Origin: a virus
Taxonomy: Duplodnaviria; Caudoviricetes
Direction: 5' to 3' (one strand)
Length of the DNA: 64,000 nucleotides
IMG/VR virus record: IMGVR_UViG_3300042366_000810
Coordinates: 6,089 to 70,088 of that record
The notes under the pieces are model-generated. The model saw only the letters and a program-made list of their open reading frames with translations, was not told where the DNA came from and ran no database searches. Below are positions 1 to 20,027 of this stretch, in pieces (position 1 is the first letter of the stretch; each line of letters starts with the position of its first letter). The position numbers and the translations under genes were made by a program.

Positions 1-141
1 AAAATTTCTGATTCAGGGGAAATAGTTGAAACTTTAATTACTGATATTAAAACACAACAAGGCAACTATAACGTATATTCATTTTCTACTGGTTTAAAAC
101 CTTGGTATATTGCAGGAGGAGTCTTGGTTCATACCAAGTAA
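1..141 (+). CDS. 3' end of a Hint-domain protein (truncated by window edge)
   Basis: Frame 1 reads KISDSGEIVETLITDIKTQQGNYNVYSFSTGLKPWYIAGGVLVHTK*, which aligns with the end of 9116..10342 (KIGSEGEILETLVTSVDSQEGEFNVYSFATGPKSWYIAGDYLVHIK*). Not in the ORF track. Confidence 0.8.
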   Translation, partial: KISDSGEIVETLITDIKTQQGNYNVYSFSTGLKPWYIAGGVLVHTK

Positions 142-147
142 AAATCA

Positions 148-675
148 ATGAATACAATAGAATCTGATGGATTTTTAAAATCTAAACTTGGTTGTGTTTA
201 TGAAAAATCTTTTATATTTATTAAAAATAATAAAAGTTTATCAAAAAAAATATCTGCAAATATATTTATAGATGATATTATTTACTCTCCATCTTTTTCA
301 GAATTATCAATAAATGATAATTTATATAACTGGTCTTCTAAAACAATGTCTAATATTTCTTTAACTGAATCAAAAGTAACATCAGTTTTTGAATATTTGC
401 ACCACAAACTTGTTTATTTTAATAATGATGAAAATGCTAAATTTTCTATGCAACAACCAATACTTGTAAAAAGATATAATAAATTTTATTTTTTAACTAC
501 CGCAATGGTTGAGGTAGGGGATATTTTATTAAAATACGATGAGCATAGTTTAAAATATGACTTTATAAAAGTAGAATCAATTAACATAGAAGAAGGAGAT
601 TTTACTACTTATAATTTTTACTTATCTCCTGGACAATCTTTTTTAGTTAATGGATGGGTCGTAGGATCTAAATAA
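148..675 (+). CDS. Stand-alone degenerate Hint (Hedgehog/intein-like) domain protein
   Basis: GCVYEKSFI resembles Hint block A; FNNDENAKFSMQQPILV matches FNGDDSAKFSQEQPMFV of the 9116 paralogue; also VEVGDILL and a C-terminal YNF..SFLVNGWVVGSK. Confidence 0.7.
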   Translation: MNTIESDGFLKSKLGCVYEKSFIFIKNNKSLSKKISANIFIDDIIYSPSFSELSINDNLYNWSSKTMSNISLTESKVTSVFEYLHHKLVYFNNDENAKFSMQQPILVKRYNKFYFLTTAMVEVGDILLKYDEHSLKYDFIKVESINIEEGDFTTYNFYLSPGQSFLVNGWVVGSK

Positions 676-2479: not shown

Positions 2480-3193
2480 ATGGCAAAAGTATTTATAGCA
2501 ACACCAATGTACGGTGGCGTATGCCATGGAGTATTTATGAAAGGTATGATTGATCTAACAAGAAGATTACAAGAAAAAAAACATGTTGTATTTTTTTCAG
2601 ATTTATATAATGAATCATTAATTACTAGAGCAAGAAATACTTTAACAGAAATGTTTTTAAGAACAGATTTTGATTATTTATTATTTATTGATGCTGATCA
2701 AGGATTTGATGCAAATGCTGTTGTCAAAATGATAGAAGAAGGCGTAGATTTAGTTGGAGCAGCAGTTCCAATGAAAGGAATAAACTGGGATAGAGTTAGA
2801 AAGGCAGCAAAAGAAGATCGGGAAAAATTAGAAAACTTTACTGCAATTTATAATGTTAATATGAATCAAAAACAAAAAGATAAACTTAGAGAAAATCCAA
2901 ATGTGCTTACAGAAGTAGACTATATGGGTACTGGTTTGATGTTGGCAAGTAGAAAAGTTTTTGAAACAATTAAAAAAGATGTTAGACAATATAGATCTGA
3001 TCAGCCATTTATTGGCGGTATTTATGCTGGAGAACCAATATATGATTTTTGGCAAACAGTTGTCAATCCAGAAAGTGATAGATTATTATCAGAAGATTAT
3101 CAATTTTGTCAATTATGGAAAAATGCAGGAGGCAAGATTTATCTTGCTCCTTATGTAAAGGTGGTGCATGTTGGAACATACTGGTTTAAATAA
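2480..3193 (+). CDS. GT-A fold glycosyltransferase
   Basis: VFIATPMYGG, LITRARN, LFIDAD (DxD), GTGLML, LSEDY.FC..W...GGKIY...H.G motifs; RBS aaggt. Confidence 0.8.
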   Translation: MAKVFIATPMYGGVCHGVFMKGMIDLTRRLQEKKHVVFFSDLYNESLITRARNTLTEMFLRTDFDYLLFIDADQGFDANAVVKMIEEGVDLVGAAVPMKGINWDRVRKAAKEDREKLENFTAIYNVNMNQKQKDKLRENPNVLTEVDYMGTGLMLASRKVFETIKKDVRQYRSDQPFIGGIYAGEPIYDFWQTVVNPESDRLLSEDYQFCQLWKNAGGKIYLAPYVKVVHVGTYWFK

Positions 3194-3917
3194 ATTAAAA
3201 GGTTTTGCACCTGTTTATGTAATTAATTTAGAATCTAGAACTGATAGGCTTGATTATATTAAAAATGAATTAGGAAAAAACAATATAACAGATTATGAAA
3301 TTATAAAAGCAGTAGACGGATCAAGTTTTAATTTTGATGAAATTATTTTTGAAAAAGATAAACTAAAACTTTCTAATAATGAACTTGGAGCAACTCTATC
3401 TCACTTAAAGGCAATGGAACATTGGATAAATACTTCAGAGTCAGAATATGCAATTATTATAGAAGATGACTTAAGTTTTGAAACTATAACAAAGTGGAAT
3501 TTTACATTTGATGAATTTTTAAAATCTATTAATAAGCCATATGATATGTTGCAACTTTGTATAATTCATAATTACACCATTAATACAAATCTACACATGA
3601 GAGAGATGAGAGATTGGTCTGCTGCCTGCTATTTAATAAAAAGAGATAGAGCAAAAGAACTTATTGAAAAACATTTTATTGATAAAAAATATGTTTTGCC
3701 ACAAAATAGATCTGCCGTAGCAGACTCTTTAATCTATAGTAGATGTAAAGTTTTATCAATCCCATTGTTAACATATAATATGGATTTAGATTCATCTATT
3801 GACATAGAGGGAAATATAATTGTTAAAGATGATATTAAGCCAAGTATGCAGTCAAACTCTAAAAAGCAAACCCTAGATTACTGGAATAATAATGGCATAC
3901 CCAAACTGGTTCTCTAG
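3168..3917 (+). CDS. Glycosyltransferase family 25-like
   Basis: VYVINL..R.DR, AVDG, GATLSH..A, IIEDD motifs. Exact start uncertain. Confidence 0.8.
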   Translation: MLEHTGLNKLKGFAPVYVINLESRTDRLDYIKNELGKNNITDYEIIKAVDGSSFNFDEIIFEKDKLKLSNNELGATLSHLKAMEHWINTSESEYAIIIEDDLSFETITKWNFTFDEFLKSINKPYDMLQLCIIHNYTINTNLHMREMRDWSAACYLIKRDRAKELIEKHFIDKKYVLPQNRSAVADSLIYSRCKVLSIPLLTYNMDLDSSIDIEGNIIVKDDIKPSMQSNSKKQTLDYWNNNGIPKLVL

Positions 3918-4455
3918 CAATATAAACATATTTGGAAAATATTTAAACTCTTTTGTTGGCTTGCCTAATTTAAAATTTTTACAAATTGGAGCATATACTG
4001 GAGATGCTTCAAAATGGTTGCTAGAAAATATTCTTATTGATAAAACATCTATACTAATAGACGTAGATACCTGGCAAGGATCTGAGGAGGGTATTCATAA
4101 AAAATTTAATTGGCAAGATGTTGAATTAACTTATGATAATAAAACATCTAAGTTTGAAAACATTATTAAATATAAAGGAACTAGCGATTCTTATTTATTG
4201 TCATCAAAAACCTTATTTGACTTTATCTACATAGATGGAGACCACACGGCTAAGGGTGTTTATAGTGATGCTCTTCTTTCCTTCCCGCTTTTAAAGTCTG
4301 GAGGTATTATGGCTTTTGATGATTATTTATGGAAACATGATACTAAAAACATTGAGTTAGAACCTAAAATGGGAATTGATAAGTTTTTAGAAAACCATAA
4401 AAATCAAGTAAAAGTCTTGTTTATTGGATATCAGGTTTGGATTGAAAAAGTTTAA
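3892..4455 (+). CDS. Class I SAM-dependent methyltransferase (Methyltransf_24-like)
   Basis: LQIGAYTG, VDTW.GS.E, FDFIYIDGDH, GGIMAFDDY.W motifs. Confidence 0.85.
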   Translation: MAYPNWFSSNINIFGKYLNSFVGLPNLKFLQIGAYTGDASKWLLENILIDKTSILIDVDTWQGSEEGIHKKFNWQDVELTYDNKTSKFENIIKYKGTSDSYLLSSKTLFDFIYIDGDHTAKGVYSDALLSFPLLKSGGIMAFDDYLWKHDTKNIELEPKMGIDKFLENHKNQVKVLFIGYQVWIEKV

Positions 4456-4941: not shown

Positions 4942-6918
4942 ATGGCAACAGTCACAAAAGACTTTAAAGTAAAGAATGGTCTGATTGTTGAAGGCACAAC
5001 AGGTACCATCAACAACTATGACATTCTTACAAAGAAACAAGATGACCAAAATTATATTATTGGTCTTATTGGTGGATCAGCAACATCTAATGCTACTGCA
5101 AATGCAGTAGTTCTTCGTGATGGAAACGCAAATTTTGCTGCAAATGTAATTACAGCAGATCTTGTCGGTGATGTAACTGGTCAAGTATCAGATATTTCTA
5201 ACTTTGATACAGATGATCTTACAGAAGGAAATAATTTATACTTTACAAATGCACGTGCTGAAGCAGCATTAGCAGGATTATACGATCCAGCAGGTTCTGC
5301 AGCAAATGCACAATCTGCAGCAGAAGATTATGCAGATAGTCTTGGAGTAAATTATGATGCAGCAGGTTCTGCAGCAAATGCTCTTTCAGATGCACAAGAT
5401 TATACAGATACACATAGTGATGCTACAACTGGCGTTCATGGAGTAAATGGAAATGTTGTTGGAACATCTGATACACAAACACTTAGCAACAAAACAATCA
5501 GTGATGATTTAATTTTTGTTGATGGAGCAAATGGAGAAAATACAGTAGAAGCAGTTGGTAACAATTTAGTTCTTACATCAAATGATGGAGAAATTATTCT
5601 TGTTGCAGGAAGCGGAAAGCATTCTTACATTGGTTCTTCTTCAGAAGGAAATAGAATTGCAACAGCAGCAGATGTTGATGCTGCAACAGCAGGTTTATCT
5701 TGGAAAGTAGCAGTTAATCTTCTTGCAGACTCTGATGTAAACATGACTGGTTCAACAAATACTTTAGTAATTGATGGACATGCTGCATTAGATACTAATG
5801 ATGTAGGATATCGCATTCTTCTTAGTAACCAAGATGTTGATTCCGAAAATGGTATTTATGAATATACAGAATCCGCTGGAACATATACACTTACTCGTAC
5901 AGAAGATGCAGATGCATTTGCTGAACTAGTTGGTGCAGCAGTATTCGTAATGGAAGGAACTCAGTATGGTCAAACATCTTGGGTTCAATCTAATCACTAT
6001 TTAACAGATTTTACATCTCAGGATTGGGTACAGTTCTCAGGTGCAGGATCTGTGACTGCTGGAACAGGTATCATCGTAGATGGTCTTGAAATTTCAGTAG
6101 ATACAAACGTTATTGCTACTGTAAGTTATGTAGATAATCAAACTACAGATGATTTAACAGAAGGCACTACAAATCTATACTTTACAAATGCCCGTGCTGA
6201 GGCAGCAGTAGGAAATCTAGATACAGACGATCTATCAGAAGGCGTAACAAATCTATATTTCACTAATGCTAGGGCTCAAGCAGCAGTTGCAGGAGATATT
6301 ACTTCAGCAATTGATGCACTTGATACAGATGATATTGAAGAGGGCGCAACCAATCTTTATCACACTGATCAACGCTCAGTTGATGCCGTAGCATCTGCTA
6401 TTAGCGGTGGAACACAAACAAATATTTCTGTTTCTTACAATAACGTAAGCGGAAAATTTGATTTCGTTGCAGAAAATGGTGTTGATGATTCAACTACTGA
6501 TGATCTAGACGAAGGTACAAGCAATTTATACTTTACAAATGCTCGTGCAGTTGCTGCTCTTGAAGCAGTTACTCCAGATTTCCCTGCAGTAGAGATTGCA
6601 AATGTAGCAAAGCAAGTTGCAGCAGAAGCATCTGTTCCAACTGCTAGCACAAACACAGCAGTATCTTGGGCAAAAGCAGATTATCGTTCTGCAGAGTTCT
6701 TAGTTAAGATTGCTAATGGATCTCATACAGAGGTTTCAAAGGTTATCCTAACACTTGACACATCAGACAACGTTGCAATTACAGAATATGCAATGGTTGG
6801 AACAAATGGCTCACTTGGATCTGTTTCAGCAGATGTAAGTGGTTCAGATGTTCGTGTACGTGTCACAACTGATAATAACAACTCAACAGTTGCAGTTATC
6901 GGAACACTTTTGAAGTAA
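4942..6918 (+). CDS. Long tail fibre protein with internal repeats
   Basis: Five TDDLxEG(x)xNLYFT-type repeats, YDxAGSAANA segments, Ala/Thr/Asp-rich; RBS AAGGAG. Confidence 0.75.
   Translation: MATVTKDFKVKNGLIVEGTTGTINNYDILTKKQDDQNYIIGLIGGSATSNATANAVVLRDGNANFAANVITADLVGDVTGQVSDISNFDTDDLTEGNNLYFTNARAEAALAGLYDPAGSAANAQSAAEDYADSLGVNYDAAGSAANALSDAQDYTDTHSDATTGVHGVNGNVVGTSDTQTLSNKTISDDLIFVDGANGENTVEAVGNNLVLTSNDGEIILVAGSGKHSYIGSSSEGNRIATAADVDAATAGLSWKVAVNLLADSDVNMTGSTNTLVIDGHAALDTNDVGYRILLSNQDVDSENGIYEYTESAGTYTLTRTEDADAFAELVGAAVFVMEGTQYGQTSWVQSNHYLTDFTSQDWVQFSGAGSVTAGTGIIVDGLEISVDTNVIATVSYVDNQTTDDLTEGTTNLYFTNARAEAAVGNLDTDDLSEGVTNLYFTNARAQAAVAGDITSAIDALDTDDIEEGATNLYHTDQRSVDAVASAISGGTQTNISVSYNNVSGKFDFVAENGVDDSTTDDLDEGTSNLYFTNARAVAALEAVTPDFPAVEIANVAKQVAAEASVPTASTNTAVSWAKADYRSAEFLVKIANGSHTEVSKVILTLDTSDNVAITEYAMVGTNGSLGSVSADVSGSDVRVRVTTDNNNSTVAVIGTLLK
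5206..6560 (+). repeat. Five dispersed protein-level repeats (T/D)TDDLxEG-x-NLYFTNARA
   Basis: DTDDLTEGNNLYFTNARA; TTDDLTEGTTNLYFTNARA; DTDDLSEGVTNLYFTNARA; DTDDIEEGATNLYHTDQRS; TTDDLDEGTSNLYFTNARA. Confidence 0.85.
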
Positions 6919-7449: not shown

Positions 7450-9093
7450 ATGGCAACTAGAATGCAACAACGTAGAGGAACTGCAGCACAATGGACTGCA
7501 GCAAATCCAATCTTAGCAGCAGGAGAAATCGGTTTTGAAACTGATACTAACAAATTTAAGGTTGGTGACGGTACAAACACTTGGTCTAACCTAACATATT
7601 TCGTTGATGCATCAATAGCCTTTGACTCCGCAGAAGTAAACGCATTAGTAACAAATGCCGTAAATGCGGTAATTGATGGTGCTCCAAATGCACTCAATAC
7701 ACTTAATGAACTTGCAGCAGCACTAAATGATGACCCAAATCTTTATACAACTTTAACTAATTTAATTACAGAAGGTCTTGAAGATGTAGAGGCAAATGTA
7801 AACTCTCACACTGCAAGCACAACCAATGTTCATGGAATTGCTGATGTTTCAGTTCTTGTTACAGAAGCAGAGTTAGCAGATGAATTATTAGAGGCTATAA
7901 CAGCCCATGCTAACGTAACTGCTAACGTACACGGTATTCCAAATACTTTGGCACTAGCAGATCAATCTTATGTAGAATCTGCTATTTCTGCTCATGCTTT
8001 GCAAACCGCAAATATTCATGGAATTACAAATACATTAGTTCTTGCAACATTATCTGATGTTTCAACTGCACAATCTAATGCAGAAACATATGCAGTAAAT
8101 AATACTAGCAATGCAATTTCTACCCATAGCGGAGTAACAACTAACGTTCATGGAATTGCAAATACATTAGTTCTTGCTACACAATCAGATGTTTCAAGTG
8201 CTCAGACTAACGCACAATCATATGCAGATAGCCTAGCATCTGACTATGATGCTGCTGGATCTGCAGCCAACGCTCAAAGCGCAGCAGAATCATACGCAGA
8301 CGGTGCAGTATCAACACATAATTTAGATACAACAAATGTTCACGGCATTTCTGATACAGCACAATTAGCATATCTAAATGCAAATACACAAACATTTACT
8401 GGATCAATAGAAATTGATCATAACTTAACAGTTGACGGTAACTTTATTGTTAACGGAAGCAACGTTCTTGTTTCAGCAACACAAATTCAGGTTGAAGATA
8501 CACTTCTACAACTTGGACATACTAATGCTGGAAATACAACAGACTTAGGTTTAGTTACATCATACAATGATGGAACCCAAAAGCACTCTGGTCTTGTAAA
8601 AGACGTAACAGATGGAAAGTGGAAGTTGTTTGATGGTGTTACAACTGAACCAGCAACAACTGTAGACTTTACAGAAGGTTCATTAGATACACTTGCTCTT
8701 AAATTCCTTGAGGCAAATACAGTAACAGTATCTGATGGAGTAGCATTCTCAGATGGAACTCAATCAAAAGAGGGCGTACCTTCACGTACACCAATTGTTT
8801 CAAAAACAGATTCTTATACACTGTCTGCTCTTTCTGAAAGAGACTCTTTAATTGAAGTAAATAAAGCAAGCGCTGCTACAATTACAATACCTACAAATAG
8901 TGCAGTAGCCTTTCCAGTAGGAACATCAATTGATATTCTTCAAGTTGGTGCTGGACAAGTAACAATTGCTGGTGATACAGGAGTAACAGTAAATGGTACC
9001 CCTGGATTAAAACTTCGCACACAATGGTCTTCTGCAACACTATTCAAGCGTGGATCAGACTCTTGGGTAGTAATGGGCGATCTAACTGCTTAA
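7450..9093 (+). CDS. Tail fibre with Mtd-N-terminal-like domain
   Basis: MQQRRGTAAQW..NPILAAGEIGFETDT.KFKVGDG..W..L.Y is the major-tropism-determinant N-terminal signature; internal HxxxxTxN(V/I)HGI repeats. Confidence 0.8.
   Translation: MATRMQQRRGTAAQWTAANPILAAGEIGFETDTNKFKVGDGTNTWSNLTYFVDASIAFDSAEVNALVTNAVNAVIDGAPNALNTLNELAAALNDDPNLYTTLTNLITEGLEDVEANVNSHTASTTNVHGIADVSVLVTEAELADELLEAITAHANVTANVHGIPNTLALADQSYVESAISAHALQTANIHGITNTLVLATLSDVSTAQSNAETYAVNNTSNAISTHSGVTTNVHGIANTLVLATQSDVSSAQTNAQSYADSLASDYDAAGSAANAQSAAESYADGAVSTHNLDTTNVHGISDTAQLAYLNANTQTFTGSIEIDHNLTVDGNFIVNGSNVLVSATQIQVEDTLLQLGHTNAGNTTDLGLVTSYNDGTQKHSGLVKDVTDGKWKLFDGVTTEPATTVDFTEGSLDTLALKFLEANTVTVSDGVAFSDGTQSKEGVPSRTPIVSKTDSYTLSALSERDSLIEVNKASAATITIPTNSAVAFPVGTSIDILQVGAGQVTIAGDTGVTVNGTPGLKLRTQWSSATLFKRGSDSWVVMGDLTA
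7807..8350 (+). repeat. Five H-x7-HGI repeats in the fibre shaft
   Basis: HTASTTNVHGI, HANVTANVHGI, HALQTANIHGI, HSGVTTNVHGI, HNLDTTNVHGI. Confidence 0.85.
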
Positions 9094-9115
9094 TAAAATT
9101 AAAAGGAGATGAGCA

Positions 9116-10342
9116 ATGGCAACATCTAAAAGAAAAGGTGTAAAGTCTTCCGCACAGGATAACTTTATTGGACCAAATAATGTAACTGGAGTTACTTCTA
9201 CAAATGTAGGATCTGGACGTGCATTTAATAATGGACGTATAGACGTATCCTGGACTAATCCAACTACTGGAAATACTCCTACTGGGTATAAAGTTTATGA
9301 TGGATCTACATTAGTAGCAACCATTTCTCATCCAACTAATACAGCAACAATCACTGGATTATCAAGCAACACTGCTTATACATATACTGTTAAAGCATAC
9401 GATTCATATGGAGAAGCATCTGGAGAAAGCGCTTCTGCTGTTACTGCTACAACAGTTCCAGAGACCCCTTCTGCCCCTACTGCAACTGCACAAGGTTCAG
9501 CAGCAACAGATGATGTTTCTTGGTCAGCCCCAGCAAGTGGTGGTTCAGCAATCACTAGTTATGATTGGGAATCAAACGACGGTAAATCTGGAAACACTGC
9601 TTCAACATCAGTATCTGTTGGACAAGAAGCAGGAACTTCTCAATCATACAGAGTTAGAGCAAAAAATGCTAATGGCGATTCAGAATGGTCTAGTTATTCT
9701 AGTCAAATTACTTCATTTTCATTTACACCGTTTGGATTTACACCATTTGGTGCTTTTAGTTTTACCCCGTTTTCAGCCTTTGGCTTTACGCCATTCGGAG
9801 CCTTTGGTTTCGTAAGTTTTGGTTTTACACCATTTGGTGCATTTGGATTCTTAAACTTTGGTTTCAGCCCATCTCAATGTGTTCACGAAGATACATTAAT
9901 TAAAACTCCTAATGGCTTAATAGCAGCAAAAGACATTAAGGTTGGAGATACAGTTTATACATTAGGATTAGATGAAGTTGATTCAGAAAATCCATTTACT
10001 TTAAATTCTAGTTCATTAACTTCAACTGGAATTATAGAAGCAGAAATTCAAAATATAGAAGCATCTCAAAAAGACGTAGTTGTATGGTTTAATGGCGATG
10101 ATTCCGCTAAATTCTCTCAAGAACAACCTATGTTTGTTAAGAGAGATGGACAGTATCAAATCCTAACCTCTGGCTTAGTAGACGTAAATGACTATTTAAT
10201 TAAAATAGGATCAGAAGGAGAAATATTAGAAACTTTAGTTACTAGTGTTGATTCTCAAGAGGGTGAATTTAATGTTTATTCATTCGCCACTGGTCCAAAA
10301 TCTTGGTATATTGCTGGAGATTATCTAGTTCATATTAAGTAA
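9116..10342 (+). CDS. Two fibronectin-III domains + Phe-rich repeat + C-terminal Hint domain; probable virion protein
   Basis: Fn3 signatures (VSWTNP..GY.V..ITGL..YTYTVKAY; VSWSAP..Y..YRVRAKN); 52-aa repeat; CVHEDTLIKTPNG..KDIKVGD..YIAGDYLVH Hint signature. Confidence 0.8.
   Translation: MATSKRKGVKSSAQDNFIGPNNVTGVTSTNVGSGRAFNNGRIDVSWTNPTTGNTPTGYKVYDGSTLVATISHPTNTATITGLSSNTAYTYTVKAYDSYGEASGESASAVTATTVPETPSAPTATAQGSAATDDVSWSAPASGGSAITSYDWESNDGKSGNTASTSVSVGQEAGTSQSYRVRAKNANGDSEWSSYSSQITSFSFTPFGFTPFGAFSFTPFSAFGFTPFGAFGFVSFGFTPFGAFGFLNFGFSPSQCVHEDTLIKTPNGLIAAKDIKVGDTVYTLGLDEVDSENPFTLNSSSLTSTGIIEAEIQNIEASQKDVVVWFNGDDSAKFSQEQPMFVKRDGQYQILTSGLVDVNDYLIKIGSEGEILETLVTSVDSQEGEFNVYSFATGPKSWYIAGDYLVHIK
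9716..9871 (+). repeat. 52-aa Phe/Gly/Thr/Pro low-complexity tandem repeat (20 Phe; 5x FTP, 1x FSP)
   Basis: FSFTP FGFTP FGAFSFTP FSAFGFTP FGAFGFVS FGFTP FGAFGFLN FGFSP. Synonymous codons vary between units, so the repeat is conserved at protein level. Confidence 0.95.
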
Positions 10343-10383: not shown

Positions 10384-11028
10384 ATGGAATATATACCACC
10401 CAAAAATAGTACTAGTACGTCAAAAATAGCACATAAATTTTTTGAAAGAAATTTAAATAATAATTTAGATGATTTGGCAAATTTTTTGCATGTTCAATAT
10501 AAAAGAATAGAACAAGGTGAAATATTAAAAAACGATAAAAATGAAAAATCTATTTGGGATTCATCTGGTAGTGTTACGACCTCAAAATGGAATAAATATA
10601 ATGTTTTTCAATTTTATCATCCAGCAATTCACAATTTGTTTAGAGCAGTAAGATCTATGACTCTCGAGGCATGTAATCATTATAATATTGATTTTGATAA
10701 AGAACAATTTTGGGTTCAAGGTTGGTTTAATATAAATTATAATCATATTGGTAAATTAGATTGGCATGAACACGGAGGAAATGGTGCACCATGGTTTCAT
10801 GGATATTATGCAGTTAAAGCAGAACCATCAATTACACACTATAAAGTTTTTGAAAATGAAATAGAAAATATTAATAAAAATAATAGAGCAATTCTTTCAG
10901 AAACTGGCCACCCACATGCAATGGGAGATTGGGACTGGGATGGACCAAGAATAACCATTGCTTACGATGTAATTCCATTTAGAGGCGTTATGCACAATTG
11001 GGAGCAACATTGGATACCTCTAGCATAA
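10384..11028 (+). CDS. Putative non-heme Fe(II)/2OG oxygenase (double-stranded beta-helix), paralogue 1
   Basis: WFN..WHEH..FHGYY.V..GHPH..RITIAYD: HxH...H facial triad plus distal Arg. Confidence 0.65.
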   Translation: MEYIPPKNSTSTSKIAHKFFERNLNNNLDDLANFLHVQYKRIEQGEILKNDKNEKSIWDSSGSVTTSKWNKYNVFQFYHPAIHNLFRAVRSMTLEACNHYNIDFDKEQFWVQGWFNINYNHIGKLDWHEHGGNGAPWFHGYYAVKAEPSITHYKVFENEIENINKNNRAILSETGHPHAMGDWDWDGPRITIAYDVIPFRGVMHNWEQHWIPLA

Positions 11029-11669
11029 AAAAACCACATAAGTTTTTTGATAGATTTTTAAATAATGACTTAAATGATTTATACAATTATTTAACCAATA
11101 TACATAAAGAGATTTTATATAAAAATATTTTTAACGTGCCAGAAAATGAACTAAAAAAATTTAACGAATTAAGTGCAGCGCCAACCAAGTTGAATCAGTA
11201 TTACAATATATTTAGTTTTAATCATAATAGTATTAAAAATTTACAAAATACTTTAAAAGATATGACTATAGAAGCATGTGAATATTATGAATATAATTTT
11301 GACGAACAAGATTATGTTATTTCGGGGTGGTTTAATTTAGATTATCAAAGTCAACAAGGAGAAGTCTCTCCTATCAATAAACCAGAATTCTTTCACGATC
11401 ATTCTGAAGGAAGTGGAATGCCAGTTTTACATGGATACTATTGTGTAAATGCAGAACCGTCGTCAACATTTTATAAAATTGATAAAAACGAAAAAAATAT
11501 TTTTGAAAATATAAACAAAAATAATCGTGCAATCTTATCTGAAACTGGTCATCCCCATGGAAGAGATGATTGGCATTTAGATAAACCAAGAATAACAATT
11601 GCATATGATATTGTTCCAATAAAATATTTTGAAAAAAAAGAAAAGGGGTATATGTGGATCAGATTATAA
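10998..11669 (+). CDS. Putative Fe(II)/2OG oxygenase, paralogue 2
   Basis: GWFN..FHDH..LHGYYCVNAEPS..AILSETGHPH..PRITIAYD; clearly paralogous to 10384. Start may be TTG near 11010. Confidence 0.65.
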   Translation: MGATLDTSSIKKPHKFFDRFLNNDLNDLYNYLTNIHKEILYKNIFNVPENELKKFNELSAAPTKLNQYYNIFSFNHNSIKNLQNTLKDMTIEACEYYEYNFDEQDYVISGWFNLDYQSQQGEVSPINKPEFFHDHSEGSGMPVLHGYYCVNAEPSSTFYKIDKNEKNIFENINKNNRAILSETGHPHGRDDWHLDKPRITIAYDIVPIKYFEKKEKGYMWIRL

Positions 11670-12376
11670 ATAAACCACATAAATTTTTTAAAAAAAATGT
11701 TAACAATAATTTAACAGACATGTTGGTTTTTTCTAAAGAGGTTAATGATATTGTTACAAGCAATACTGGCTATGACTTAAAAAATACATTTTTAGATACT
11801 AGTAAAAGAAATACACATGATACTGTAATGGATTCATGGCACATTACATATAATATTTTTGAGTATGAAAATGAGGGTATTAAAAATATAAAATCAACAA
11901 TTAAAGAATTAGTCATTGAAGCATGCGAATATTATGGTATTGATGCAAAAGAACAACAATATATGTTAAAAGGTCATTTAAACTATTATGCAGGACCTAA
12001 ATTAGTTAATTTTAAAAATGCTGTGTGGGATAATCATGGTAATGATCCTTTAGAGTTTCATGGCTATTATTGTATTAATGCAGAGCCATCAATAACGTAT
12101 TATTTAATCAATGACGATGTAGTGGAAAATGAAAATAAAAATAATATAGCGCTTTTATCTCAAAATGGTTATCACCATATTGTAGGAAATTGGTTATCTG
12201 AAGATGTTAGAGTAACTATTGGGTATAATGTATTTCCATTAAATAAAATTCCAAAAAATATAAAGGACATCCCCGCTGGGTCAAAAATTTATGGCTGGGA
12301 TCCACATAAACGTGAATATGCATCAACAATAATTGATAGAGATTTAACTTTTGGTCAATGGATTCCTTTAATATAA
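11654..12376 (+). CDS. Putative Fe(II)/2OG oxygenase, paralogue 3 (more divergent)
   Basis: KPHKFF N-terminus; WDNH..FHGYYCINAEPS..GYHH..RVTIGYN. Confidence 0.6.
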   Translation: MDQIINKPHKFFKKNVNNNLTDMLVFSKEVNDIVTSNTGYDLKNTFLDTSKRNTHDTVMDSWHITYNIFEYENEGIKNIKSTIKELVIEACEYYGIDAKEQQYMLKGHLNYYAGPKLVNFKNAVWDNHGNDPLEFHGYYCINAEPSITYYLINDDVVENENKNNIALLSQNGYHHIVGNWLSEDVRVTIGYNVFPLNKIPKNIKDIPAGSKIYGWDPHKREYASTIIDRDLTFGQWIPLI

Positions 12377-12621: not shown

Positions 12622-14667
12622 ATGTCAGACTTTTTTTCTTTTAAATTATCATCAGACTTTGTGGACAGTTATAAAAAAACAGAATCTCCCTTTGGATTTC
12701 GTGATGCTGCTACTAACTCTCTAGGAGAGGTTACCTTTATTCGTACATATTCTCGTATGAAAGAAGATGGAACAAAAGAAAGATGGTATGAAGTTTGTAA
12801 GCGTGTAATTGAGGGTATGTATTCTGTTCAAAAAAACCATGCTAAAGAAAATCGTTTACCATGGAATGACTATAAGGCTCAGAAGTCTGCACAAGAAGCA
12901 TTTGATCGTTTATTTAATTTAAAGTGGACCCCTCCTGGTAGAGGTTTGTGGGCTTTTGGAACTCCCATGACCATGGAAAAAAGAAACTCTGCCTCTTTAC
13001 AAAATTGTGCGATGGTATCTACTCATGATATTGATCGTAATGATCCAGGTGCATTGTTTGCATGGGTCATGGATGCATTAATGTTGGGTATTGGTGTAGG
13101 ATTTGATACTTTAGGACAAGAAAAAGAAATGTTAATTTATTCACCAACAGAGCCACCATCTATATATAAAATTCCAGATACTCGAGAGGGTTGGGTAGAA
13201 TCTGTTAGATTATTGATTAATTCATTTCTTAGAGCAAATCAATCAATACAAGAGTTTAATTATGACCTAATAAGGCCTCTAGGAGCCCCAATAAAGGGCT
13301 TTGGAGGAGTCGCTAGTGGTCCAGAGCCATTAAAAGATTTACATAGCCGTATACGCAATGTAATAGGTTCTAGAGCAGGAGATATTTTAGATAGTAGAGC
13401 AATTGTAGACATTATAAATCTTATTGGTACATGTGTTGTTGCTGGCAATGTTCGTCGTTCCGCTACCCTTGCATTAGGAACTGCAGGAGATGATATTTTT
13501 ATCAATTTAAAAAATCCAGAAGTATTTTCAGAAAGAAACTCTTATGATCCAGCAAAACCAGGTTGGGCTTGGATGTCAAATAATTCTATTGATGCAAAAG
13601 TTGGAACAAAATACGAAGATTATGTTGATTTAATTTCAAACAATGGGGAGCCAGGCTTTATTTGGCTTGATGTTGCTCGTAATTATGGACGCTTAGCAGA
13701 TCCCGCTGATGGAAAAGATTATCGTGTTATGGGATTTAATCCATGTGCAGAACAACCATTGGAATCTTATGAACTTTGTACATTAGTAGAAGTTCATTTA
13801 AATCGTCATGAAGATAAAGAAGATTTTTTACGTACACTAAAATTTGCTTATTTATATGGAAAGGCAGTTACACTTCTTCCAACACACTGGCAAACAACAA
13901 ATGGAATTATGCAGCGTAATCGTCGTATTGGAACATCATTAACAGGTATTGCATCATTCGCTGACACTAAAGGAATGCCAGCATTGCGTGAATGGATGGA
14001 TGAAGGATATAATAAAATTCGTCAATACGATCATTCATATTCAGAATGGCTATGTGTACGTGAATCAATTCGTGTAACAACTGTAAAACCTTCTGGATCT
14101 GTTTCGTTGTTATCTGGAGCAACTCCTGGAGTTCATTGGGGGCCTGGAGGTCCATTTTATTTACGTGCTGTTAGATTTGGAAATACAGATCCAATGCTTC
14201 ATTTATTTAAAGCAGCGGGATATAAGATTGAAGCAGATCTAGTATCAGCAAATACTTCAGTAGTATATTTCCCAATAGCATCTGGGCATCCACGATCTGA
14301 AAAAGATGTAAGTCTTTTTGAAAAAATTGGTTTGGCAGCAACTGCTCAAAAATATTGGTCAGATAATGGAGTTTCTGTAACATTGTCATTTAATAAAGAG
14401 GCTGAGACTAAATTTGTTGCTCCAGCATTACAAATGTATGAAGGACAACTTAAGGCAGTATCTTTCTTGCCTATGGGCAATGAGGTTTATCCACAACAAC
14501 CATATAACGAAATAAGTAAAGAAGAGTATGAATCTTATGTTGGTAAAATTGCAAAGATTGATTGGTCTGCAATTTATGATGGAGTGGATAATTTAGAGGC
14601 TCAAGGAGAGATGTATTGCACTACAGATTATTGTGAAATTAAAACAGTAAAGGAAAATAGCAAATGA
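12622..14667 (+). CDS. nrdJ: Class II (adenosylcobalamin-dependent) ribonucleotide reductase, monomeric type
   Basis: RTYSR, PPGRGLW, LQNC, NPCAEQPL..ELC.L.E (N-x-C-x-E), TTVKPSGS.SLL, C-terminal C-x4-C; no intein. Confidence 0.95.
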   Translation: MSDFFSFKLSSDFVDSYKKTESPFGFRDAATNSLGEVTFIRTYSRMKEDGTKERWYEVCKRVIEGMYSVQKNHAKENRLPWNDYKAQKSAQEAFDRLFNLKWTPPGRGLWAFGTPMTMEKRNSASLQNCAMVSTHDIDRNDPGALFAWVMDALMLGIGVGFDTLGQEKEMLIYSPTEPPSIYKIPDTREGWVESVRLLINSFLRANQSIQEFNYDLIRPLGAPIKGFGGVASGPEPLKDLHSRIRNVIGSRAGDILDSRAIVDIINLIGTCVVAGNVRRSATLALGTAGDDIFINLKNPEVFSERNSYDPAKPGWAWMSNNSIDAKVGTKYEDYVDLISNNGEPGFIWLDVARNYGRLADPADGKDYRVMGFNPCAEQPLESYELCTLVEVHLNRHEDKEDFLRTLKFAYLYGKAVTLLPTHWQTTNGIMQRNRRIGTSLTGIASFADTKGMPALREWMDEGYNKIRQYDHSYSEWLCVRESIRVTTVKPSGSVSLLSGATPGVHWGPGGPFYLRAVRFGNTDPMLHLFKAAGYKIEADLVSANTSVVYFPIASGHPRSEKDVSLFEKIGLAATAQKYWSDNGVSVTLSFNKEAETKFVAPALQMYEGQLKAVSFLPMGNEVYPQQPYNEISKEEYESYVGKIAKIDWSAIYDGVDNLEAQGEMYCTTDYCEIKTVKENSK

Positions 14668-15116
14668 AAAGAATATTGATATCAGCAGCAATTTTTTTAT
14701 TAGTTTTTGCTGGTTTACAAAGTATAACTAAATCAAATAATGATTGTGTTAATCTTTATATTGATTACAGTGTATTAAATAATCAAACAAAAATAACAAA
14801 ATGTATAGAAGCGTCTAAAGATACAACTGCATTAGATATTTTAAGAAAGGCTAATCTTAAGATAGAAGGAACTAAAAAGTATGGACTTAGCGTGGTATGT
14901 AGAGTTAATGGGCTTCCAAATCAAATAATGGAATCATGTGAAACAATGCCACCAGAAAATGCATACTGGGCACTTATAGTTAAAGAAAAACAAAAAGTTC
15001 CTTTTCCAACTAGTGAATGGGGTTGGGGACAATTAGCAGTTGATCAACAGTTGTTAAGTCCAGGAGATTCTATTGGATTAGTTTGGGCCAATAATGGAAA
15101 GGTTATATTTCCATGA
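14664..15116 (+). CDS. Exported beta-grasp protein resembling DUF4430 / transcobalamin C-terminal domain (putative B12-binding)
   Basis: Signal or anchor N-terminus; TALDILRKA..IEGTKKYG..VCRVNGLP..C..MPP..AYW..W.W..PGDSIG pattern; four Cys; ATGA overlap with nrdJ. Confidence 0.6.
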   Translation: MKRILISAAIFLLVFAGLQSITKSNNDCVNLYIDYSVLNNQTKITKCIEASKDTTALDILRKANLKIEGTKKYGLSVVCRVNGLPNQIMESCETMPPENAYWALIVKEKQKVPFPTSEWGWGQLAVDQQLLSPGDSIGLVWANNGKVIFP

Positions 15117-15277
15117 AATTAGCATACAAAACATTAGATAACGTTATAGAGTTTCCACTACAAAAACACAAGCCTAAAGCCATACAATATATTTTTCAAT
15201 TAGTTATAAATTTATCTGCACTTTATATGGCTAATAAATTTACAGTTGATATTTGGCGTTCTTTGACGGGACACTAA
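15113..15277 (+). CDS. 54-aa small protein with one hydrophobic segment
   Basis: MKLAYKTLDNVIEFPLQKHKPKAIQYIFQLVINLSALYMANKFTVDIWRSLTGH*; ATGA overlap upstream and TAATG overlap with pduO. Not in the ORF track. Confidence 0.7.
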   Translation: MKLAYKTLDNVIEFPLQKHKPKAIQYIFQLVINLSALYMANKFTVDIWRSLTGH

Positions 15278-15771
15278 TGGTTCACTTAACTCGTATATAT
15301 ACAAAAACTGGTGATGATGGAAAAACTTCTACTGCTACAAATGAAAGAATAGATAAAAGTAGCACTTTAATTGAAGCAATTGGTGCAGTAGATGAAGCCA
15401 ATTCTGCTATTGGAATGGCAACAGAATATCATAATGATATTATAGATAGAATACAAAGTGATTTGTTCGACCTTGGAGCAGAACTTTCTGGTGCTTCAAC
15501 AATAACAATATCTGAAGAAAGAATTACTTATTTAGAAAATGTTATTGATGACTATAATGAATTTTTAGAGCCACTACATTCTTTTGTTCTACCTACAGGT
15601 CCTCTTCATAATGCAAGAACAATAGTTAGAAGAGCAGAGCGAGAGGTTTGGAAAGTAGAAGGGTTAAATATAAACATTGCAAAATATTTAAATCGACTTT
15701 CAGACTTATTGTTTGTTATGGCAAGATATCATAATAAAGGTAATGAAAAATTATGGATTCCCAGAAATTAA
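15277..15771 (+). CDS. pduO: ATP:cob(I)alamin adenosyltransferase, PduO type
   Basis: RIYTKTGDDGKT, GAVDEANSAIG, ARTIVRRAER, YLNRLSDLLFVMAR. Start set at ATG 15277. Confidence 0.93.
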   Translation: MVHLTRIYTKTGDDGKTSTATNERIDKSSTLIEAIGAVDEANSAIGMATEYHNDIIDRIQSDLFDLGAELSGASTITISEERITYLENVIDDYNEFLEPLHSFVLPTGPLHNARTIVRRAEREVWKVEGLNINIAKYLNRLSDLLFVMARYHNKGNEKLWIPRN

Positions 15772-15783
15772 TGAAAGGAAAAT

Positions 15784-16383
15784 ATGAAATATCAAATAAT
15801 TAATGTTGCAACCAAAGAAGATTTAGAACTAATTAATAATTTTGTTAATACTATAAAATTTAATACCAAAGAAGACCATATTCCTCTTCATGATCCATTA
15901 TTTAGTAATCCTAATGTTAATTTTGACATAACTACTTATGGAGATATGCCAAGAGAAGTCGTTTCAATATTTGAAAAATATTGTGAGGCAATTAAAGATG
16001 CTGTAACAAAAATCACTAATATAGAGTACGACCCTCCTATATTGGGTAAAAGTTATATAATGAGGTATTCTCCTGGAACTAGTATTGGCATGCATTATTC
16101 AAGCAATAGGCCAAATAATACTTTTAGATCTATAGTAAAATGGAACGATAATCATGAAGGTGGCGTTCTTAAATTTAAAAATTATAAAGTTAATAAAAAT
16201 TTAATTGCTGGAGATTGTATCATTTTCCCTGAAAATGAAGACTTTATGATAGAGGTAACAAAGATAGAAAAAAACAACATGTTTATATCGGATTTTTGGA
16301 ATGCTCCAGTTGGCCAATCCCCATATCCAGGGTTAAAGTATGAAGAAATTTATTGGGGAAATCCTCTTTGGGAAAATCTTTAA
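15784..16383 (+). CDS. Prolyl-4-hydroxylase-like 2OG-Fe(II) oxygenase fold with degenerate metal ligands
   Basis: Y.PG..IGMHYS..IVKWNDNHEGG.L.F..GD.IIFP; the HxD Asp and the distal His appear replaced. Confidence 0.55.
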   Translation: MKYQIINVATKEDLELINNFVNTIKFNTKEDHIPLHDPLFSNPNVNFDITTYGDMPREVVSIFEKYCEAIKDAVTKITNIEYDPPILGKSYIMRYSPGTSIGMHYSSNRPNNTFRSIVKWNDNHEGGVLKFKNYKVNKNLIAGDCIIFPENEDFMIEVTKIEKNNMFISDFWNAPVGQSPYPGLKYEEIYWGNPLWENL

Positions 16384-16403: not shown

Positions 16404-19400
16404 ATGTCTATTGTATCTAATTTATATGCTGAAAAGGTTTTTGCCGAACATCCGCTAGCCCTATGGTCATTAGACGAAAAAGTAGATTATTTATCTTTTA
16501 TTACTGAAGAACAAAGAAGCATCTCGAATACTTGGTCTTTTTCAGATTGTACAGTAACTGAAGAAAATATAGATATAAATAAACCCTTTCTTGAAAGTGT
16601 TTTAAATTTAATAGAATTTGACAACTTTATTGAAACATCAAAAGAAATAACTTTTATTGGCGAAGACTTAGAATCATTTAGTGCCTTAAACGAAGAATAT
16701 GCAACACTCACCATAGGCTCTTATTTTTATACAACTAGTCCTTATATTAAATCTATTAGTATTGGGTTTGAATATATAGACACTAGTTCTTTAGAAAACA
16801 TTCAAGCATTACAAAAATTTGAAACAATTCCTACTTCAGAGTGGATGTTTGTATCTCATACTATTGAATATCCACAACAAAATTCAAATTTTAGACCATT
16901 GATAAAAATAGAATTCCAAAATGGGTCAACAACCACAGATAATTATCAAATATATATAAATGGCATAACTGTGGGGCAGTGGGCAGAAGAATATCATACA
17001 ACATCATTAGGAACGTTAACCATACCATTTCCTACAGATATTAATTTAAATAATATTGATAGTTGTGTAAAGGCAAATGCATACGGACTTGGAACAAAAA
17101 ATGGATACTACCTAGTTAATAATAATACATTAATGTCTAAAAATATTGGTATTCCTATGGTTTATGGAGCATCAACTGTTACAAAAATTTATTCAAATAA
17201 TAATAATCCGTCGTTAATTGTTCCAGGTTTTGGGTTTTTAAATAATGCTGGTAAGTATAAAGAGTATACATTGGAAATGTGGTTAAAGATTAATTCAGAT
17301 GAAAAAACACCAAAAAGAATTTTTGGACCAATTTCTTCAACTGATGGACTTTATGTGGAGGGTGGATTTTTAACTTTAGTAGTTGGAAAATATTTTGCAT
17401 CTCATTTTATAGGTCAATGGTATAGGCCAATGTTAATTCAAATAAGAGTTATTAATAATTCTATTGTTATGTTAATAAATGGAGAACAAGTTGTTAGTTT
17501 AAATATTGATACAAATAGTTTAAATTTACCAGAAGAGTATTCGGCAGGAAAATCAAACGATTGGCTTGGATTTTATTCATATGATAAAATCAATCCTTTT
17601 GAAATAGATTGTATATCTTTATATTCTTATAGTGTTCCAGAGTTTATTGCTAAAAGAAGATGGGTGTATGGCCAGGCAGTAACATCTCCAGAAACTATTA
17701 ATTCTGCATATGCTGGAACTACCGCCTATATTGATTATCCATTTGCCAACTATAGTGCTAACTATACATATCCAAATTTTGGAAATTGGAATCAAGGAAC
17801 TTTTGATAATTTATCAACAAGAGAAATATCTCTGAATTCTCCAGAATATACTTTACCAATAATATACACAGATAATTTATCTTTAGATGATCTTTATAAT
17901 GATTGTTATAATATTAATTTATCTGGAAATAAGTTTTTTACATTTCGACCTAATAGCGTATGGAATGACAAAAATACATATATAAATGTAAACCAATCTT
18001 CAATTATTCAAGATGAAATTCATGCAATTTATATGGCCTTTGAGCATACCGATTATAATGCAAATGAAGAAATTTTAATAAAATTTTATAATGATTTTAA
18101 TGATAACTATTTTAAAATTATTACAATAGATGGAGATATTAAATATATTTTAAACTATAATGGAGTTAACACCATACTCAAAACAATTAATAATTATAGT
18201 TTAAATGATCCAATATCTGTAGGTATATCAATACATGAAATAGTTAATTATTTTGGTGGAGATACTGCAGTATTTTTCGGTTCTCAAAATAATTTAAAGT
18301 TTTATATAGCGGGAGATGGAAATAAAGATAATTGTTTTGTGGGTAAAATTTATTCAGTTGGTATATCTACAGAGTATAACCTAAGTGTTATTAATAGTCA
18401 TTTTGATTCCCAGGGTTTTGTAAATATTTCAGATGCAGCGGATTTAATAGAACACACTGCAAGTTATACTTTGTTGCCATCAATAGCATATAATACATTT
18501 TTCTTAGACATAGGCATTTCTGGTTATTGGCAAGACTATATTCCTTTAAGTTACTTTGCAAAATATGTAGATAATAGCATTGGAGAAAGATATTATGGCT
18601 TAGACTTTTTACAATTTAATATAGATTATCCAGCCCCATCTACAAGCACAACAACCGAAATAATTATTGATCCTTATCCACAAGATCCAGAAGAAAATAC
18701 GCATGAATGGGATTATGAAGATTTAGACGTTGAATTTGATCATCCTATACAAAGACAATACGCTCAGTTAGGAAATTATTTATTTACTGGCTGGGAAAAT
18801 TATGAAGATGCTTCGCAAAAATCAATTAAAACTAATCAGTTAGATACTTCAGGTGCAAGTGTAAAATCATATATTAGCCTTCAATATATTCAAGATGGCG
18901 CTAACAGAAATATGCAATCTTATTCAAATATTGAATTAGTAAATCAAAGCAGAATTATAGATTTTTCTGAAATAAGTGGATGGAGTACAAAATTATTTGA
19001 GGTTGTTGATAATACATTAATATATCCTCCAACAAATGTTGATTTTAATAATTTAGCAGTAGTCACACATCTTGATTTTAACGTTCGTGGAGTTTTGACA
19101 AAGCCTATAGCAATTAAAAAATTAGAATATGCTTCTCAAACTTTTGACTCTACTACTTTTAATAAAATAGGAACAAGATTTGGGCTAAACCTATATCCAT
19201 ATAAAAAATCAGGAATTTATTATGATTATAAAACTAAAAATCCATTTAGTATTTATAAAGAAAGCACTCCATATTTATATAATACAAAAACAAGCGGAAT
19301 TGAAATAAGAGGCGAGGTAGATCCATATATTAGTCGAGGTATAGGAATTCCAATTAATGAAAACTCTGTTGGAAATTATAGAGTTAGCGCAATGCAATTT

Positions 19401-20027
19401 TGGATGAGGTATGATTTTGACAGATTTACTTATAATCCAATACAGGTTTTAGAAATAGAGCATAAACAAGATATAATAAAATTTTTTGCAGTAGCAAATA
19501 GTGAGATTGGAAACCGAGCAAGAATATTTGCAGTAAATCAGTCTACTGGGCAAGAAGTTAATGGAATATCATTTTATTTAAATGGTAATTTAGTAAGAGA
19601 GCCAGTAATAGCAGTAAAAGAATGGTCCTCAATTGGAGTGTCTTTTGCTAATAGTTTAAACTTTGACAATTATTTAGGAGCAATAAATTTAAATGGGCCA
19701 ATGGCTTATAATAATATTACTCAGTATCAGGCTACATCTTTACAGCAGATACAAAGTAAAACATATAGGCCATGGCTAAGAGTTAAAAATGATGGCATTT
19801 CTGATATTTTATGGACCTACTGGAATACTAATTTTATTTGGGATGGAGTCTTAGTTCTTGCCTCTAAAGATTTATATGCTGTAAATCCAGGAACAGTATA
19901 CAAAACATATATAGGAACCAATAAGATTGTTATAGACAGTTCTGGCATAGATCTTGGTTTTTCATCAGATCGGGTTCGTATATTTTCAGAAGTTTTGTGG
20001 CAATCATCAGTAGATAAAGCAGTATAA
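16404..20027 (+). CDS. Large virion protein with LamG/concanavalin-like region (tail/baseplate-associated)
   Basis: VFAEHPLALWSLDE N-terminus; YTLEMWLKI..RIFGP LamG-like segment; 1207 aa. Confidence 0.55.
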   Translation: MSIVSNLYAEKVFAEHPLALWSLDEKVDYLSFITEEQRSISNTWSFSDCTVTEENIDINKPFLESVLNLIEFDNFIETSKEITFIGEDLESFSALNEEYATLTIGSYFYTTSPYIKSISIGFEYIDTSSLENIQALQKFETIPTSEWMFVSHTIEYPQQNSNFRPLIKIEFQNGSTTTDNYQIYINGITVGQWAEEYHTTSLGTLTIPFPTDINLNNIDSCVKANAYGLGTKNGYYLVNNNTLMSKNIGIPMVYGASTVTKIYSNNNNPSLIVPGFGFLNNAGKYKEYTLEMWLKINSDEKTPKRIFGPISSTDGLYVEGGFLTLVVGKYFASHFIGQWYRPMLIQIRVINNSIVMLINGEQVVSLNIDTNSLNLPEEYSAGKSNDWLGFYSYDKINPFEIDCISLYSYSVPEFIAKRRWVYGQAVTSPETINSAYAGTTAYIDYPFANYSANYTYPNFGNWNQGTFDNLSTREISLNSPEYTLPIIYTDNLSLDDLYNDCYNINLSGNKFFTFRPNSVWNDKNTYINVNQSSIIQDEIHAIYMAFEHTDYNANEEILIKFYNDFNDNYFKIITIDGDIKYILNYNGVNTILKTINNYSLNDPISVGISIHEIVNYFGGDTAVFFGSQNNLKFYIAGDGNKDNCFVGKIYSVGISTEYNLSVINSHFDSQGFVNISDAADLIEHTASYTLLPSIAYNTFFLDIGISGYWQDYIPLSYFAKYVDNSIGERYYGLDFLQFNIDYPAPSTSTTTEIIIDPYPQDPEENTHEWDYEDLDVEFDHPIQRQYAQLGNYLFTGWENYEDASQKSIKTNQLDTSGASVKSYISLQYIQDGANRNMQSYSNIELVNQSRIIDFSEISGWSTKLFEVVDNTLIYPPTNVDFNNLAVVTHLDFNVRGVLTKPIAIKKLEYASQTFDSTTFNKIGTRFGLNLYPYKKSGIYYDYKTKNPFSIYKESTPYLYNTKTSGIEIRGEVDPYISRGIGIPINENSVGNYRVSAMQFWMRYDFDRFTYNPIQVLEIEHKQDIIKFFAVANSEIGNRARIFAVNQSTGQEVNGISFYLNGNLVREPVIAVKEWSSIGVSFANSLNFDNYLGAINLNGPMAYNNITQYQATSLQQIQSKTYRPWLRVKNDGISDILWTYWNTNFIWDGVLVLASKDLYAVNPGTVYKTYIGTNKIVIDSSGIDLGFSSDRVRIFSEVLWQSSVDKAV

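Follow-up and report, generated by a model that had tools for sequence, protein, structure and literature searches.

Here we have examined a 64,000-nucleotide stretch of viral DNA (positions 6,089 to 70,088 of IMG/VR record IMGVR_UViG_3300042366_000810, Caudoviricetes; hereafter the window) and a gene within it that directly follows a tail-fibre gene. This gene is an open reading frame (ORF) of 408 aa, open at 9116–10342 on the plus strand, whose product combines a short basic leader, two fibronectin type III (Fn3) domains, a phenylalanine-rich repeat and a C-terminal domain that, by profile comparison and structure prediction, is a genuine HINT fold. We lean towards the view that the protein serves the tail fibre as an accessory and that its Hint domain cleaves itself from the chain by way of a thioester at the Gln254–Cys255 junction, whether that thioester is resolved by hydrolysis or by transfer. 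An earlier note on this DNA, made from the letters alone, had described the ORF, the repeat, a first Hint cysteine at codon 9878, a VHIK ending and an SQEQP motif at block B, and all of these elements read as stated.

The C-terminal domain and its viral relatives

Evidence for a Hint domain from the single sequence was weak. The Pfam model Hint_2 (PF13403) matched aa 255–283 only, at E 0.008 and 17–19 bits against a gathering cut-off of 28.4, and none of the Pfam Hint-family models exceeded its own cut-off on the window protein. A profile built from 54 relatives was compared with the PDB; its best match was the bacterial intein-like (BIL) domain 2LWY (E 5e-10), with the inteins 4O1S, 2JMZ and 4E2U matching at 2e-8 to 4.5e-8; among relatives scanned singly against Pfam (n=54), 21 matched Intein_splicing, 7 Hint_2, 6 PT-HINT (PF07591) and 3 Hint (PF01079). 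An AlphaFold2 model of aa 250–408, made with the family alignment, reached a mean predicted local distance difference test (pLDDT) of 95.9 and a predicted template-modelling score of 0.90. Foldseek comparison with the PDB returned 62 matches at E<1e-3, the best of which were all inteins, BIL domains or the Hedgehog HhC domain 1AT0, with template-modelling (TM) scores of ~0.6–0.8, and 2LWY had the highest identity among solved structures (22%). The earlier assignment of a Hint domain is thus borne out by the family profile, AlphaFold2 and Foldseek. The domain has the horseshoe-like all-beta form of the HINT fold and begins with a nucleophile, Cys255, while block B of the window protein reads S-Q-E-Q in place of Thr-x-x-His.

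A search with aa 255–408 against 1.84 billion representatives (E<1e-3) placed this domain in 167 clusters at 50% identity. A single cellular match, on a short contig of a metagenome-assembled genome, came from a pattern-limited scan of cellular genomes, and a 'virus-only' distribution is therefore provisional. The domain lies at the extreme C-terminus in nearly all of the 150 listed matches. BIL domains and mini-inteins are the nearest kin of this family, whose members are modular proteins of an adhesin-like kind. Close structural relatives in BFVD (TM 0.88–0.94) are proteins of uncultured Caudovirales that carry the automatic UniProt names 'Hint domain containing', 'Fibronectin type III' and 'PASTA_pknB domain containing', so the domain call itself is already in the databases.

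The first residue of the domain and the first position of block B are conserved in this family. The residue aligned with Cys255, the conservation of which had been named beforehand as a test of the prediction, is Cys in 92 of the 93 N-complete relatives and Ser in the other. The family has a mean column identity of only ~21%, yet in a 76-sequence alignment the first position of block B is always Ser (68) or Thr (8); the position of the catalytic His is occupied by Gln (50), His (18) or Glu (8). The same alignment shows little or no variation at Asn326, Asp359 and Tyr388, which look structural (a beta-turn, a second 'GD' turn and block F). The remark in the earlier note that block B departs from TxxHP was therefore a correct reading of the letters, but Gln is the family majority at this position and no quirk of the window gene.

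The other end of the domain is variable. Among the 76 sequences the end reads HN in 42, HT in 8 and HI in 1 (the clade of the window gene), and ~17 finish with a tailless IS, IA or VS. The VHIK ending to which the earlier note drew attention was also correctly read, but it represents a lineage-specific loss of Asn rather than a trait of the family, most members of which end in HN-K. The residue following HN is Lys in 45 of 88 sequences and Ser or Thr in 4; canonical splicing is excluded for the family because Cys never occurs at this position and Lys is the usual residue. As the C-terminal end varies freely (HN-K, HT-K, HI-K, IS, IA), the shared function would have to lie at the N-terminal junction, which all members have in common.

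The modules preceding the domain are mostly Fn3 or PASTA. Among 65 full-length relatives, 27 have Fn3 and 14 have PASTA domains, with single cases of PKD, a Listeria-Bacteroides repeat and a Gly-rich region. The basic leader is common to Fn3-type members and a different leader to PASTA-type members. No signal peptide was seen among the full-length relatives or in the leader of the window protein (aa 1–19), the first 11 residues of which have a pLDDT below 50 in the AlphaFold2 model. One relative from another contig (P0016, 408 aa) is identical to the window protein over its N-terminal ~275 residues and carries the Hint domain of a PASTA-containing paralogue described below, ending in VHTK; this chimera suggests recombination or gene conversion between two paralogous Hint genes.

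Association with the tail fibre and the tract before Cys255

We examined synteny in 56 IMG/VR loci containing 42 distinct Hint genes, 35 of them with upstream sequence. In 28 of these 35 distinct loci the Hint gene starts between −31 and +44 nt relative to the stop of a gene that terminates in the same fibre-tip domain, here called fibC, as the fibre gene of the window. The preceding gene in five further loci is fibre-like without fibC, and the Hint proteins there are 836–1142 aa long. The remaining two have neither kind of gene upstream, one of them being a stand-alone Hint gene directly after another Hint gene. The fibC domain (~110 aa) also ends minor tail proteins of Gordonia phages; in Gordonia phage Baddon the gene after this minor tail protein encodes a 202-aa hypothetical protein without obvious resemblance to Hint by eye.

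The two neighbours are joined in one relative. P0059 (916 aa) is a fusion that runs from a fibre N-terminus through fibC (aa 127–226, E 2e-19), Pro/Thr linkers and Cys-rich repeats to an aromatic/Pro tract and a Hint domain. Together with the synteny, this Rosetta-stone fusion points to the Hint protein as a working partner of the fibre tip, which it probably extends, with a proximal N-terminus and a distal Hint domain. The role as a virion appendage proposed in the earlier note is consistent with both the strict position after the tail-fibre gene and the fusion. Residues 430–640 of P0059 contain three near-identical repeats of ~60 aa (...TWYIAGC...NITAASSSGYPSTNCVAPTPTPV...) with two Cys each.

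The module of fibre and Hint is duplicated in the window phage, where a 213-aa fibre protein ending in fibC is followed by a 285-aa protein with PASTA, repeat and Hint and by a 175-aa stand-alone Hint protein (window 1–675; L002:644–2676). The second of these is 72% identical to the window protein across the repeat and the Hint domain.

The repeat ends immediately before the Hint domain. Residues 201–252 contain 20 Phe and five copies of FTP, and the tract terminates in ...FGFSPSQ directly before Cys255. Tandem Repeats Finder resolved the underlying DNA (9731–9864) into periods of 24 and 39 nt, and the tract is thus a genuine tandem repeat rather than a chance composition. Its length varies between 36 and 64 aa among close homologues (Hint domains 69–100% identical) through gain and loss of FTPFG(AFG) units, and close relatives share the same final 12 residues (GFLNFGFSPSQ). 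In a full-length AlphaFold2 model based on a 38-sequence alignment the pLDDT is ~35 over aa 205–249 versus >90 for both Fn3 domains and the Hint domain. An ordered structure for the repeat was rejected on this value, which corresponds to no confident fold, and on the model a disordered and strongly hydrophobic tether is the most fitting description of the tract.

Similar tracts precede the Hint domain throughout the family. For the 65 representative clusters in which 110 or more residues lie upstream of Cys1, the 50 aa preceding it were 26.7% aromatic and 25.2% Pro, compared with 8.9% and 7.4% in the remaining N-terminal region, and aromatic residues and Pro together made up at least 35% of these 50 aa in 53 of the 65. 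The motif differs from member to member, being FTPFGAFG in the window protein and FPPYFPYF (FPPYFP), FFAPPG, PPDFTPV, IIATP or PPVAPP in relatives. A likeness to FG-nucleoporins, raised in the earlier note, holds in that the tract is disordered, repetitive and rich in Phe and Gly; it is a likeness of composition only, as hydrophilic spacers are absent, the tract spans just 36–64 aa and relatives have FPPYFP or purely Pro-rich motifs in place of FG.

Processing at the Gln254–Cys255 junction

According to the reading we favour, Cys255 would attack the carbonyl of Gln254 in an N-to-S acyl shift, with Ser334 and Gln337 replacing the Thr and His of block B. Water or another nucleophile would then resolve the thioester, and the Hint domain would be released, leaving the two Fn3 domains and the repeat with a new C-terminus, ...FGFSPSQ, as an accessory to the tail fibre encoded immediately upstream. 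Catalysis, the fate of the thioester and the presence of the protein in virions are what we infer here. The window protein has Q|CV at the N-terminal Hint junction and LVHIK at its C-terminus. Splicing is impossible in this copy because there is neither a terminal Asn nor a C-extein, in agreement with the earlier note, and Asn-driven C-terminal cleavage is, from the encoded H-I-K-stop, equally impossible. N-terminal thioester cleavage is therefore the sole canonical chemistry remaining. The elements conserved in the family, a nucleophile at position 1 and Ser/Thr in block B, are what every Hint reaction requires to begin, and the elements of later steps are variable or absent. Hedgehog- or BIL-like N-terminal processing thus appears to be the most economical reading of the sequences.

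Phage tailspikes and fibres are known to carry C-terminal intramolecular chaperones that self-cleave (peptidase S74; endosialidase, T5 pb1), which are trimeric and use a Ser-Lys dyad. The logic is alike, a C-terminal fibre domain that would remove itself after assembly, but fold and chemistry are unrelated, the comparisons showed no similarity to them in sequence or fold, and the analogy is functional only. Among HINT proteins, the Hedgehog HhC domain (1AT0; TM 0.68–0.74) is likewise C-terminal and non-splicing, with formation of a Cys1 thioester followed by release or transfer of the N-terminal domain as its only canonical reaction. It differs in being eukaryotic and in having a sterol-recognition region after the Hint domain, a G|CF junction and a block B His, whereas the viral protein lacks this region and has Q|CV and Gln. 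A-type BIL domains (Amitai et al. 2003; Dassa et al. 2004; 2LWY) share the HINT fold and Cys1 and give the best profile match, and their C-terminal His-Asn without a +1 nucleophile is also present in most of the viral relatives, the window protein having H-I instead. Both groups occur in variable, modular surface-type proteins and not in conserved enzymes. Unlike BIL domains, the viral domains are always at the extreme C-terminus, with a tail of 0–20 residues and no real C-flank, belong to phage tail-fibre modules, mostly have Gln for the block B His and are always preceded by a disordered aromatic/Pro tract. The PT-HINT domains of polymorphic toxins also release a module, in conflict systems, but what they free is a downstream C-terminal toxin, whereas nothing lies downstream here.

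Several observations weigh against self-cleavage. The block B His is normally a key residue for the N-S shift, and its replacement by Gln in the window protein and in two thirds of the family is the weak point of the proposal. The Asp of block F is not conserved either (Ser in the window protein, Asp in 22 of 76). Stand-alone Hint paralogues with leaders of only 5–15 residues keep Cys1 despite having almost nothing to release, and Cys1 may therefore serve another purpose. When the whole protein and a typical HN-K relative were compared by tblastn with the 50,697 phage records of INPHARED, no homologue from a cultured phage was found. Published work shows that the N-S shift of an intein can proceed even when the block B His is missing, provided that position −1 has a residue bulkier than Gly (Friedel et al. 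2018, PMC6333167). Compensation of this kind was considered and rejected: Gly occupies −1 in 12 of 40 members with Gln in block B versus 2 of 18 with His, and in the absence of a correlation a bulky −1 residue is not the explanation here.

These same features could reflect a Hint domain that is catalytically dead and serves as a structural or binding module, either docking on the fibre tip or forming a distal receptor-binding knob, with the tract as a flexible stalk and the chain uncleaved. We regard this as possible, though clearly less probable than self-cleavage. Gln or Glu replaces the block B His in 58 of the 76 sequences, the clade of the window gene has lost the terminal Asn in addition to the unconserved block F Asp, the stand-alone paralogues have almost no N-extein, and Pro-rich tracts such as PPVAPP in some relatives resemble plain rigid linkers. 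However, near-complete retention of Cys1 together with an invariant block B Ser/Thr is hard to explain at ~21% column identity without chemistry at the junction, and the start of the Hint domain exactly at a Cys, right after a disordered tract, is the layout of a scissile junction.

A narrower reading, which we consider unlikely, is that the thioester is transferred, which would attach the Fn3 or PASTA arm covalently to the fibre tip as the virion is assembled, or to an amine in the host cell wall when the phage adsorbs, in the manner of Hedgehog or sortases. The C-terminal Hint domain of Hedgehog passes its N-terminal partner to a nucleophile (reviewed in PMC7765530). The strict pairing with fibC fits this idea, as does the presence of PASTA, a module typical of Gram-positive cell-wall proteins, as one of the two dominant N-terminal modules, and replacement of His by Gln could conceivably slow spontaneous hydrolysis and so keep the junction intact on the virion. 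On the other hand, the idea is entirely inferential, and there is no region for adduct recognition after the Hint domain comparable to the sterol-recognition region of Hedgehog, as the chain ends 0–20 residues past the fold. In a specific and marginally less likely version the protein would act as a 'harpoon': the Gln254–Cys255 junction would persist on the virion, held by the His-to-Gln change, until attack by a cell-wall amine or the fibre tip on host contact bonded the arm and shed the Hint cap, with the tract as a sticky, flexible tether that presents the junction.

The earlier note had further suggested that the repeat is a multi-core substrate, akin to a ribosomally synthesized and post-translationally modified peptide, of three oxygenase-like paralogues encoded at 10384–12376. 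These paralogues directly follow the Hint gene in the window and in the closest relatives, copy number in relatives is two to four, and language-model features placed the first near clusters of PF13759 (2OG-FeII_Oxy_5) with a score of 0.96, which is a lead only. The suggestion does not survive wider comparison and is now very improbable. Only 5 of the 35 distinct loci have such paralogues within 3 kb downstream, the second Hint paralogue of the same genome has the same repeat without such neighbours, and the oxygenase fold is unconfirmed, as none of the three proteins has a Pfam, PHROG or PDB-profile match. Moreover, the repeat motif is wholly different among relatives, which leaves no core peptide in common.

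It is scarcely credible that the gene is the decayed remnant of a mobile intein or that a low-complexity frame was annotated in error: Intein_splicing does match many relatives, but inteins are inserted in a host protein and have a terminal Asn and a C-extein starting with Cys, Ser or Thr, none of which applies here, there is no homing endonuclease and the same terminal position is conserved across 167 clusters, while a good ribosome-binding site and the conservative substitutions in full-length homologues disfavour an artefact.

Gene features, the phage and implications

Table 1. Features of the fibre and Hint region, with positions in the window unless stated otherwise
Feature	Position	Strand	Description	Basis
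Tail fibre, upstream partner gene	7450..9093	+	Mtd_N-type N-terminus; 'fibC' tip domain at ~8737-9090	Pfam Mtd_N 6e-16; PHROG tail-fibre families
Shine-Dalgarno AAGGAG	9103..9108	+	ATG starts 7 nt downstream	Direct sequence reading
Whole Hint gene	9116..10342	+	408 aa + stop; leader, Fn3, Fn3, aromatic repeat, Hint	20 full-length homologues, Hint part 52-100% identical
Basic N-terminal leader	9116..9172	+	aa 1-19, M-A-x-x-K-R/K-x-G-x-K-S-x-A-x-(D)-N-F-L/I-x-P	Conserved in Fn3-type relatives
Fn3 domain 1	9173..9451	+	aa ~20-112	Pfam fn3 E 1e-11 over aa 40-107; AlphaFold2 beta sandwich, pLDDT >90
Fn3 domain 2	9467..9709	+	aa ~118-198	Second fn3 stretch (Pfam); AlphaFold2 beta sandwich, pLDDT >90
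Aromatic low-complexity repeat	9710..9877	+	aa 199-254, units F-T-P-F-G-(A-F-G)	20 Phe; predicted disordered
Cys255	9878..9880	+	Hint residue 1, putative block A nucleophile	Cys in 92/93 N-complete relatives, 75/76 aligned
HINT-fold domain	9878..10339	+	aa 255-408 (154 residues)	AlphaFold2, Foldseek, family profile
Block B S-Q-E-Q-P	10115..10129	+	Ser334 at the conserved Thr/Ser position, Gln337 at the catalytic His position	Aligned to TFDHP of BIL 2LWY
C-terminal V-H-I-K	10328..10339	+	Block G His retained, Asn replaced by Ile, single Lys before stop	
Second paralogue, 3' end	1..141 (gene start L002:1285, before the window)	+	PASTA, aromatic repeat, Hint; 285 aa	Directly follows fibC-ending fibre gene; PASTA assigned for P0017
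Stand-alone Hint paralogue	148..675	+	175 aa; Cys preceded by a 15-aa leader; SMQQP; C-terminal VVGSK	
Three tandem oxygenase-like paralogues	10384-12376		214, 223 and 240 aa	Invariant His130, His139, His178

The window comes from a 70-kb IMG/VR contig that is ~65% complete, and a 113-kb syntenic contig exists. Its portal, its major capsid protein and a tape measure protein of 1930 aa identify the phage as a siphovirus; the G+C content is 33%. Its closest matches are large Streptomyces phages (54% identity for a DnaE-type polymerase and 43% for the capsid protein), and it is an uncultured siphovirus of ~113 kb distantly related to them. The host is probably a low-GC aquatic actinobacterium, as suggested by the likeness to Streptomyces and Gordonia phages and by the PASTA modules. 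The actinophage marker WhiB was not found in the 70-kb contig, itself ~65% complete, and the window contains no tRNAs.

Other genes of the region deserve mention. The only minus-strand gene of the region (676–1227) encodes 183 aa with a hydrophobic N-terminus; its L004 homologue matches SLT_3 (lytic transglycosylase), and counterparts directly follow Hint genes in several relatives (L011, L015, L026). A glycosyltransferase (GT25) and a methyltransferase lie amid the fibre genes (2480–4455), joined by an epimerase in the relative L004 (2796–5792), and these are candidates for modification of virion or host-envelope glycans. Small ORFs come after a gene for a class II (B12-dependent) ribonucleotide reductase (together 12622–16383; counterpart L004:13346–17112), and in the syntenic contig they include a PduO-type Cob_adeno_trans gene; the two activities would give a phage a cassette for use and activation of B12. 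Immediately upstream of the portal gene, a 1207-aa ORF (16404–20027) is conserved in the 113-kb relative and had no PHROG match at E<1e-5.

Hint domains are familiar from inteins, Hedgehog processing domains, the BIL domains of bacterial surface proteins and the release modules of pretoxins. The sequences described here show what appears to be an autoprocessing HINT domain in a setting that is both new and consistent. We found no paper on this architecture, the aromatic/Pro tract, the link to the fibre or any experiment on them, and only ordinary inteins in phage terminases and polymerases. The family offers a natural test of the need for the block B His, since Gln, His and Glu vary at this position while Cys1 is fixed, which is of interest to intein chemists, and short C-terminal Hint domains without Asn could be tools for making protein thioesters. 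The phages appear to infect uncultured aquatic actinobacteria, which are abundant and hard to culture. If the proposed processing is correct, it would be a new use of Hint domains, in the self-processing or covalent coupling of the parts with which a phage recognizes its host, and a junction that is kept intact until host contact would be the first case of Hint-mediated protein ligation in virus assembly or irreversible adsorption.

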